Source: Octopus vulgaris (lineage: Eukaryota). From it: a stretch of DNA of 64,000 nucleotides. The stretch covers positions 20,956,001-21,020,000 of the forward strand of contig OX597817.1 in assembly GCA_951406725.2 (NCBI GenBank), written 5' to 3'. Positions 8,253 through 11,164 of the stretch are shown here, in pieces (positions within the stretch are counted from its first letter, which is position 1; every line of letters begins with the position of its first letter). The notes beneath the pieces are model-generated. The model was not told the DNA's origin. It ran no database searches and was given only the letters and a program-made list of their open reading frames with translations. The translations under genes and the position numbers were made by a program.

Positions 8253-8464
8253 TATATATATATATATATATATATATATATATATATATATATATATATA
8301 TATACATACATACATACATACATACATACATATATATATATATATATATATATATATATAGTTAATCCAAACAAGAAAACACAGAACAAAAGAGAAAAAA
8401 CACAGCAACGCAGGACGTGGAACAATTAAAGTATTATTGACGCTCAGGAAAGAAGGGAAGGAGG

Positions 8465-8499
8465 GTTTAACGTTTCGAGCGGAGCTCTTCATCGGAAAC
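8465..8499 (-). ncRNA. Minimal type-I hammerhead ribozyme, family A (core variant CCGAUGA)
   Basis: GUUU-CCGAUGA-A-GAGC UCC GCUC-GAA-ACGU-U|AAAC: stem I GUUU/AAAC, stem II GAGC/GCUC, palindromic ACGU stem III. Confidence 0.7.
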
Positions 8500-8819
8500 A
8501 AGGAGAAGGAAAGATCCCAAGGAGGGAAGACAGAGAAGACAATATTTGAGCTGGTGGTGCTTAAGAGATCACATGTTGAAAAGAACAGAATTTGGCGGTT
8601 GTTGAAAAATGGTTTTATAATGCAAGAGAGTTCCAAAAAAAGGGAATGCTGTGTGTGTGTGTGTGTGTGTGTGTGTGTGTGTGTGTGTGTGCAAGATGAC
8701 AAGTGTGTTTGTGCGTACGTGTGTGTGTGTGTGTGTATTTTTGGTGAATAGAGGTAATGACAAAGCCAGCTGTGGTGATGACTGCTAGCTGTTTGTGTCA
8801 AGCTAGGTCAAAGCCAGGT

Positions 8820-11090
8820 CAAAAAACATCATAATGTGTGTGTTGTTTGTTGTGTGTGTGTGCTTGTGTGTGTTCGTGTGTGTATGCGTAGAGTGTGGGT
8901 GTGTGGCGTAACCTAGTACGTGTGTGCTTGTACATGCCTGTGTGTGTAGGGGGATGTATATGTGGGTTCATTTGTGTGAGAATGTATGTATGTGCGTGTA
9001 TGTGTGCGTTTGTATGTGTTTGTGTGTAGGTGTGCGTGCGCGGATAGGTGTATATTGTGTATGTATATCTATCGTTGTGTATGTGAGTTTCTGTGTGTGT
9101 ACGTGCGTGCGAGTGAATGTATGTATATATGTGTGCGTGTGTGTACAATGTAGGGCTTATATGTGTGTTTATATGTGTGTGTGTATGTATGTGTGTATGT
9201 GTATGTATGTATGTATATATATGCGTGTGTGTATGTATGTATGTTTGTATGTGTGTGTATGTGTGTATGCATGCGTGTGTGTATGTATATATTTGTGTAT
9301 GTGTGTGTATGTGTGTATGTATGTATGTGTGTGGGTGTGCATGTGTGTGTGTATGTATACGTATGTACGTACGTATGTATGTATGTGTGTATGTATGTAT
9401 GTATGTACGTATGTGTGTATTTTTGCATGCGTGTATGTGTGTATGTGCGTGTGTGTACATATGTATATTTATGTATGTGTGTCTATGTATGTATTTATGT
9501 ATGTAGTGTATGTATGTGTGTGTGTATGTATGTATGTGTGCATGCGTGTATGTGTGCATGTGTGTGTGTTTGTATGTATGTATATATATGTGTGTGTATG
9601 TGTGTGTGTATGTATGTATATGTGTGTGTATGTATGTTCGTATGTATGTATGTGTGTGTATGTGTGTGTATGTATGTATGTACGTGTGTGTGTATGTATG
9701 GGTGTGTATGTATGTGTGCATGCGTGTGTGTGTATGTGTGTGTGTATGTGTGCGTGTATGTATGTATGTATATGTATGTTTGTGTATGTATGTATCTATG
9801 TATGTTTGTTTGTATGTGTGTATATATGTATGTATGTGTGTATGCGTGTGTGTATGTGTGTATGTATGTGTGTAAGTGTGTATGTATGTGTGTATATGTA
9901 TGTATGGACGGGTGTATGTGTGTAAGTGTGTGTGTGTATGTGTATGAGTATGTATGTATGTATGTATATGTACGCGTGTGTGTATGTATGTATGTGTGTA
10001 TAGTATGTGTGTGTGTATGTATGTATGTGTGCATGCGTGTATGTGTGCATGTGTGTGTCTGTATGTATGTATATGTATGTGTGTGTATGTATATATGTGA
10101 CTATGTATGTATGTGTGTATGTATGTGTGTATGTGTATGTATGTGTGTGTATGTATGTATGTAGCTGTGTGTGTATGTATGTGTGTATGTATGTGTGTAT
10201 GTATGTATGTGTATATATGTATGTGTGCATGCGTGTATGTGTGTGTGTGCGTGTGTGTACGTATGTGTGTATATGTATGTGTGTGTATGTATATGTATGT
10301 ATTTGTGTATGCATATATGCATGTGTGTATGTGTGTGTATGTATGTGTGTATTTGTGTATGTGTGTGTGTATGTATGTATGTATATGTATGTGTGTGTAT
10401 GTATGTATGTATGTATGTGTGTATGTATGTATGTGTGTATGTGTGTATGTATGTATGTATGTATGTATGTATGTATGTATGTGTGTGTATGTATGTGTGC
10501 GTGCGTATGTGTGTGTATGTATGTGTGTGTGTATGTGTGTGTGTGTGTGTGTATGTATGTATGTGTGTATGTATGTATGTATGTGTGTATGTATGTATGT
10601 GTGTATGTATGTGTGTGTGTGAATGTATGTATATGTGTGTATGTATTTTTTGTGTGTATGTATGTGTGTATGTATGTATGTATGAATGTATGAATGTATG
10701 TATGAATGTATGTATGTATGTATGTGTGCGTGTGTGTATGTATGTATGAATGTATCTATGCATGTATTATGTGTGTGTACGTATGTATGTGTGTGTGAGA
10801 ATGTATACGTGTGGGGTGTTTGGAGTTGTGTGGGCGTAAGGTACATGTGCGTGTGTGCGCTTACGTGCGTGTATCTGTGCGTCCCATCTAGGTGTTTATA
10901 GGTGTGTGCGTTTCTGTATGAGTATTGTCCCTGGTGTGTGTGCACGGGCATGTGTGTGTGTGCACGTGGGGGTGTGGGGTGTGTGTATGGGTGTGGAAGT
11001 ATGTGTGCGTACATGTGCATGTACGTTGTGTGTGTGTGGTGTGTTGGGAGTAGTTGTGTTCGTGGGTACGTGAGTATGTGTGTGTGACTG
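8820..11090. repeat. ~2.3-kb degenerate (TG)n/(TATG)n low-complexity tract
   Basis: Visible; source of the His/Thr/Tyr and Val/Cys/Met pseudo-ORFs. Confidence 0.97.
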
Positions 11091-11164
11091 CATAAGGACA
11101 ATTATAAAAATTAAAAAACTTAAAAATAAATAATAATTAATAAACAAAAAATAAAAAATAAAAA

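Follow-up and report, generated by a model that had tools for sequence, protein, structure and literature searches.

The window, i.e. the whole stretch of 64,000 nucleotides of Octopus vulgaris DNA that was analysed, contains a Penelope-like element (PLE) in which kilobases of degenerate CA/TACA repeats separate the ORF from a hammerhead ribozyme tail. The CA/TACA tract was homologous among copies and lay between ORF and hammerhead in the families B, A and Y. On the whole, we consider it likely that the tract is an inherited, passenger-like part of the 3′ UTR and a minor source of CA repeats, and that in a sister branch a predicted RNA duplex within it was edited by ADAR and the edits were copied into DNA. 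The main interest of the element lies in this sister branch, outside the window.

The window copy and the homology of its CA/TACA tract

The 5′-truncated element occupies positions 8361-12966 on the minus strand in the order ORF, T-run, CA/TACA tract, hammerhead tail and (TA)n. Its disrupted and 5′-truncated ORF (11200-12966, minus strand) was read by translation and alignment and comprises an RT from the DKG motif onwards, a thumb, a C-x4-C-x2-C linker and a GIY-YIG endonuclease, whose match scored under the Pfam curated cutoff. The GIY-YIG reading frame closes at 11165; a 14-nt deletion in this copy carries the frame beyond the family stop (~11200). By BLAST, the ORF was ~96% identical to that of the near-intact copy L031, in which the PLE-type RT (DKG motif) and the C-terminal GIY-YIG share one open frame of 816 aa. 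Matches of the L031 ORF to Pfam RVT_1 and GIY-YIG were weak and under the cutoffs, and 605 homologues were found at E<=1e-30, the best at 55%. The linker was conserved in the alignment and fits the CX2-5CxxC definition given in PMC8557442; the label "Neptune-type" is provisional and draws on this linker and on the (TA)n targets.

The 3′ UTR begins with a T-rich run of 75 nt (11090-11164, minus strand; 69% T), which is common to families A and B, family Y having a short T run only. The inherited CA/TACA tract follows at 8651-11089 (minus strand; 2,439 nt; A 45%, C 34%, T 17%, G 5%) and carries ordered landmarks common to copies; its TRF core was 9160-10794 (period 4, 414 copies). RNA of this tract is predicted to be unstructured, and it is without the pair of G-rich arms seen in the sister branch. 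The 290-nt family A tail (8361-8650, minus strand), a part of the pseudo-LTR, contains a minimal type I hammerhead (8462-8502, minus strand; core 8495-8473), located by motif scan and folding, with C replacing U4 and a palindromic helix-III region. The core and helices I/II were found in the pseudo-LTR, and self-cleavage is a prediction. The hammerhead was absent among the 150 of 187 Rfam matches listed, which were of miRNA type, spurious and under the gathering scores. The host target lies at the 3′ end of the insertion ((TA)n/(TATG)n, 8252-8360; TRF), and host (TA)n was also present on its 5′ side (12982-13019; TRF and sequence). The order of stop, T-rich stretch, CA/TACA, hammerhead tail and (TA)n given in the initial annotation was thus confirmed. 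A 760-codon stop-free frame at 8819-11101 was rejected as coding, because the strand composition makes stops rare; such stretches also varied in frame and length between copies.

An old 5′-truncated copy at 44862-46146 (plus strand) showed a CA tract of 1,019 nt (44862-45880), a tail with a decayed hammerhead core running to ~46146, and then (TA)n, i.e. the order and polarity of the first copy, as had been annotated at 44860-46144. Its assignment to family A did not hold: the tail was 72% identical to that of the first copy, with its closest genomic relatives at 75-81%, and the copy aligned over ~1.2 kb (66%) with the family B copy L333, which has its own ORF, placing it in family B. A solo tail of a sibling subfamily at 22552-22722 (minus strand) had no upstream CA tract. 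Pieces of an unrelated LINE (RVT_1, zf-RVT) were also present in the window at 1349-3696 and 17039-17758 (both minus strand), as were an imperfect inverted repeat of ~180 nt with a purine-rich and a pyrimidine-rich arm (16280-16461) and a fold-back with ~240 nt per arm (~43520-43960; 43668-43800 region), in which a hammerhead-like core was seen at 43712-43728.

The assembly (2.8 Gb, 227 contigs) was searched, and an ORF-anchored set (n=40) was made up of 39 of the 40 best endonuclease matches, the fortieth being the window copy itself, and one RT match, 10 kb around each being fetched. A random sample comprised 80 regions of 10 kb (800 kb) from 28 large contigs. The CA/AC dinucleotide fraction directly past the stop exceeded 0.40 at 37 of the 40 ORF-anchored loci, compared with 12 of 2,560 random 600-nt windows, and the three remaining loci carried insertions or broke off. 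Reverse polarity, i.e. TG-rich sequence past the stop, was found at none of the 40. Unique 18-mers spread along the tract recurred in 10-39 of the 40 loci and at no more than one place in the random 800 kb, and the tract landmarks kept their order across dispersed copies. The common tail was reached in 34 of the 40 loci (31 within the stretch, 3 after extension) and six broke off. Partial upstream repeats of full-length copies contained tract sequence; 13 copies with a pseudo-LTR partial tandem had an upstream hammerhead ~3.2-3.3 kb before the stop, and the full unit of L031, which has a partial upstream repeat, measured ~5.9 kb. The landmark order, the shared tail and the tract sequence in upstream repeats bear out the earlier suggestion that the tract is intrinsic cargo. 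Tract length was fairly constant in many copies (2.3-3.4 kb) and changed by slippage-sized indels and block duplications. In family A, the distance from stop to hammerhead ranged from 1.3 to 6.4 kb via deletions and block duplications, and three older copies had reached tracts of 5.6-6.4 kb through block duplication.

Exact matches to the hammerhead core numbered at least 7,583 genome-wide, and most tails were solos of ~215 bp beginning downstream of the tract. Among the 30 best family A tails, found with a 280-nt query that favours longer copies, the tract measured at least 1.4 kb in 12, 0.3-1.1 kb in nine and 0.2 kb or less in nine. Taken literally, the majority of tails genome-wide lacked the upstream CA tract that the initial annotation had tied to them, but they did so because solos start downstream of the tract, which is not foreign to the element. 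By analogy with PLE biology (PMC8557442, PMC4209133), reverse transcription of the RNA would proceed from the tail at (TA)n targets, with frequent 5′ truncation; most copies would then stop short of the tract, which would be carried by long ones alone. In the random 800 kb, 15 tail matches scored >50 bits, and most of the strong ones were ~215-bp solos. Many solo tails, in L101-L180 and at 22552-22722 of the window, began at a near-identical point ~75 nt upstream of the core, which might be a truncation hotspot or the end of a non-autonomous mini-element. L106, L109, L123, L133, L135, L136, L139 and L178 contained hammerhead tails of a further, more remote family, whose core differs and which has no CA tract next to it.

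Family B showed the T-run followed by the CA tract at 17 of 25 loci, as read from profiles, and at three of the 25 a tail-like match was met 290-570 nt past the ORF without a tract. Despite turnover of its sequence, the tract has the same polarity in families B, A and Y. The RNA strand of the element was G-poor throughout (third positions of the ORF 52% C and 14% G); the CA rather than TG polarity may follow from the G-poor bias of the whole strand. A first scan of metagenomes revealed no relative, and a later search yielded 80 loci with related ORFs. A CA tract was found in none of the 47 loci whose match reached the ORF end, a set biased against tracts because short-read contigs break at repeats; a hammerhead-like pattern was present in 33 of these 47, mostly 125-863 nt downstream of the ORF.

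Share of the genome's CA repeats and role of the tract

The random 800 kb contained 40 CA-rich tracts of at least 300 bp, 28 of which were of CA/TACA type and amounted to 16 kb, or 2.0%. None of the 40 carried landmarks of A, A′, Y or B, bar one 30-bp match in L136, and the sole tract with a tail after it was pure host (TACA)n. Exact landmark counts in the assembly were at least 35 and 46 for family A and at least 255 for Y, and by a rough estimate the element-borne tract makes up ~1 Mb, or ~0.04% of the genome. The repeat belongs to the element and moves with it, and a marked share of the repeat class, likewise looked for as a sign of retrotransposon seeding, was not found. The element adds little to the CA repeats of the genome, and seeding is minor. 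Of the earlier proposal that it is a vector seeding large CA-rich satellites, the deposition of kilobase tracts (1.3-6.4 kb) stood, while landmark counts of 35, 46 and 255 against 7,583 cores, and none on random tracts, spoke against the wider effect. The family A landmarks were distributed unevenly over the assembly strands (15:31 and 9:26; p=0.026 and 0.006, overlapping sets) and those of Y were not (139:116); the imbalance may be due to chance. L167 contained a degenerate CA/TA tract of 1.3 kb in two inverted copies that share a flank; these belonged to another repeat.

We hold it to be probable that the tract is a tolerated, unstructured passenger. CA/TA repeats are very abundant in the genome, and a host microsatellite into which ORF and tail were inserted independently, or one that expanded separately at each locus, might have given a similar picture; this is refuted by the shared 18-mers and the conserved landmark order, which leave it practically no probability. 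That the element is a major engine seeding the large CA-rich satellites of its host has precedents in a shrimp Penelope with SSRs (PMC7878876) and in snake CR1-L3 (PMC6050309) and would agree with the kilobase tracts deposited, up to 5.6-6.4 kb in three older copies, but it is very improbable given 0 of 40 random tracts with landmarks, a lone tract with tail that is host (TACA)n, and a share of ~0.04% of the genome against 2.0% for CA/TACA tracts. A selected functional spacer, for example a single-stranded C/A-rich protein platform, an RT loading site or a template-jump zone, with the arms as a later aid to Y, seems unlikely, although not to the same degree. The retention of the tract in B, A and Y with one polarity while its sequence turned over, its fairly constant length of 2.3-3.4 kb in many copies, the duplex in the youngest and largest tract-bearing family and the conversion of G.U to G-C pairs would all fit such a role; against it stand the length range of 1.3-6.4 kb in family A, the absence of a tract from all 47 relatives from other organisms, the three family B loci reaching a tail-like match without a tract, and the spread of family A without arms.

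Inverted arms and A>G changes in the sister branch

Family Y is a young sister family of the same layout, with 86% amino-acid identity in the endonuclease. It has at least 255 copies and many open frames of ~1,008 codons, the ORF differs by 0.1% between copies, and the family was probably active recently. In a tree rooted on three B copies, A′′, A′ and Y, in this order, formed a clade (support 86) that excluded A, and family A itself was poorly resolved at the root (support 26). L274, L281 and 22 of the 25 B loci were omitted from this tree, their alignable ORF being too short. It supersedes an earlier tree from a short alignment with one short outgroup, which had put the root inside A. G-rich islands inside the tract numbered two in A′ and Y (0.9-1.7 kb apart); only the second was present in A′′, and none in A. 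Arm 1 corresponds to the island of A′′ in reverse complement, and because of this the ancestral state is fixed without need of the tree root; we infer that the arm-free form kept by the family of the window copy is ancestral. A search for a specific tract segment whose inversion could have given island 2 yielded no convincing partner. Single-copy inversions were also seen in the CA tract of L047 (UTR +1333-1500) and L299 (UTR +2272-2467), so that inversions recur there.

Both arms were present in 30 of 31 family Y copies, around a loop of 1,403-1,512 nt. Predicted pairing of the arms within a family was strong (ddG -36 to -47 kcal/mol, compared with -7 to -12 for shuffled partners), weaker across the A′/Y split (-12 to -28 kcal/mol), and stronger on the sense strand in all eight copies. 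The best predicted 250-nt duplex reached ~-189 kcal/mol in A′ and Y, compared with -25 in the window copy.

Relative to the unduplicated ancestral state, A had changed to G on the RNA strand at 40 of 77 positions in the arms (arm 1, 24/45; arm 2, 16/32) and at 2 of 190 in the controls (ORF, 1/90; 5′ part of the UTR, 1/100; p<1e-9), while T>C in the arms was found at 5 of 77. In either arm it was the RNA strand that carried the A>G changes, and these were confined to the arms, i.e. clustered, strand-specific changes were found in a long predicted duplex. Per copy, A′ arms carried 11-28 A>G and 0-4 C>T changes. Most A>G changes were common to A′ copies, indicating one or a few founding events. 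With a G 5′ of the site, 1 of 6 had changed compared with 38 of 74, a non-significant difference (p=0.20) in the direction expected for ADAR from the motif given in PMC5625713. Towards Y, G.U pairs became fewer and G-C pairs more frequent at changed columns. T>C opposite a new G was counted at 20 of 27 sites, compared with 3 of 14 elsewhere in L262 (p=0.002), a count weakened by the poorer alignment of Y arms with the ancestral state (~50 mismatched columns). No A>G excess was seen in the arms among 30 young Y copies, where few A remain. Assembled contigs of four runs presumed to be RNA gave no match to arm 1 and broke off where the ORF ends, at repeats that the comparison passes over. The single-copy inversions of L047 and L299 showed no G.U excess, a weak control as their partners are uncertain.

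Judged by this pattern, ADAR is very likely the source of the arm A>G changes. Other sources, i.e. RT misincorporation on structured RNA, repair of fold-back cDNA, or wobble selection hiding the duplex from silencing, could be argued from the 5′-neighbour preference, which was not significant; they are rather improbable, as wobble selection should have used C>T equally (0-4 against 11-28 A>G per A′ copy), the changes lay on one strand in both arms and nowhere else, and about half of A had changed, as in the retroviral inverted repeats attributed to ADAR in PMC12925331. With ADAR as the editor, an inverted duplication in the tract would have created a long RNA duplex, which is predicted from folding; ADAR would have edited this duplex in a master copy on one or a few founding occasions, reverse transcription would have fixed the A>G edits in DNA, and selection or repair would have restored the duplex by T>C opposite the new G. 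That the paired arms are now under selection is conceivable, if doubtful. A fuller reading is more tentative still: the tract would itself spawn the inverted duplication, ADAR would turn about half of its A-U pairs into G.U, reverse transcription would make these heritable and compensatory U>C would lock the helix. Editing might in this way have rewritten the master sequence of the element and helped to build a selected, editing-resistant, G-C-rich helix enclosing a C/A-rich single-stranded loop, which family Y, the youngest with a tract, would now carry. An analogy might be drawn with telomerase RNA, in which a C/A-rich region is enclosed by a long-range helix; the 3′ junctions of insertions consisted of (TA)n, with no added TG.

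Significance and comparison with known systems

In the window element, a known principle, the carriage of simple repeats by retrotransposons, takes an extreme form, and the random sample sets a limit to its effect on the genome. The wider lineage preserves a dated series of no arms, one island, an inverted copy, an A>G burst and compensation. With this series it can be tested directly whether RNA editing is able to direct heritable change in a mobile element that is active, and whether retrotransposition gains or suffers from a long duplex in the 3′ UTR when ADAR activity in the host animal is very high; exceptional hyper-editing is described for octopus in PMC5625713. A multi-kilobase CA tract in a PLE 3′ UTR was not found described in the literature searched, and Repbase or Dfam entries may hold such families. 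Nor did this literature describe an active lineage of retrotransposons in which ADAR edits had become fixed; a genome screen of edited LTR elements reported in PMC4866542 sought G>A only.

The element resembles the EN+ PLEs of Neptune/Nematis type, as they are characterized in PMC8557442, in its DKG RT, CX2-5CxxC linker, C-terminal GIY-YIG with CCHH, partial-tandem pseudo-LTR, hammerhead and microsatellite targeting. It differs from them in a 3′ UTR of 2.3-3.4 kb consisting mostly of CA/TACA repeats, and the supplement of PMC8557442, which lists octopus families of Naiad and Hydra, gave no match to the window hammerhead. The type I core, the palindromic helix-III region and the thousands of solo copies are likewise features of the minimal hammerheads of metazoan PLEs in PMC4209133; here, however, C replaces U4 in both A and Y, and kilobases of repeats separate ORF and hammerhead. 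The penaeid shrimp Penelope, which carries SSRs (PMC7878876), and the snake CR1-L3 LINE, which seeds microsatellites (PMC6050309), similarly carry simple repeats to new sites, where lengthening is possible. In contrast to theirs, the tract found here is internal, degenerate, kilobases in length and a small share of the repeats of its genome.

For the sister branch, the closest parallels are ADAR-type A-to-G hypermutations fixed by reverse transcription in avian retroviruses, as reviewed in PMC12925331, and ADAR-type changes reported in PMC11702581 for 3 of 235 pseudogene insertions made by L1 in cell culture. Such cases share with the arms the conversion of about half of A to G in an inverted repeat, the strand specificity and the copying into DNA. 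The sister branch differs from them in that the putatively edited state founded a continuing autonomous lineage, with at least 255 young copies, and in that later T>C changes restored the pairing.
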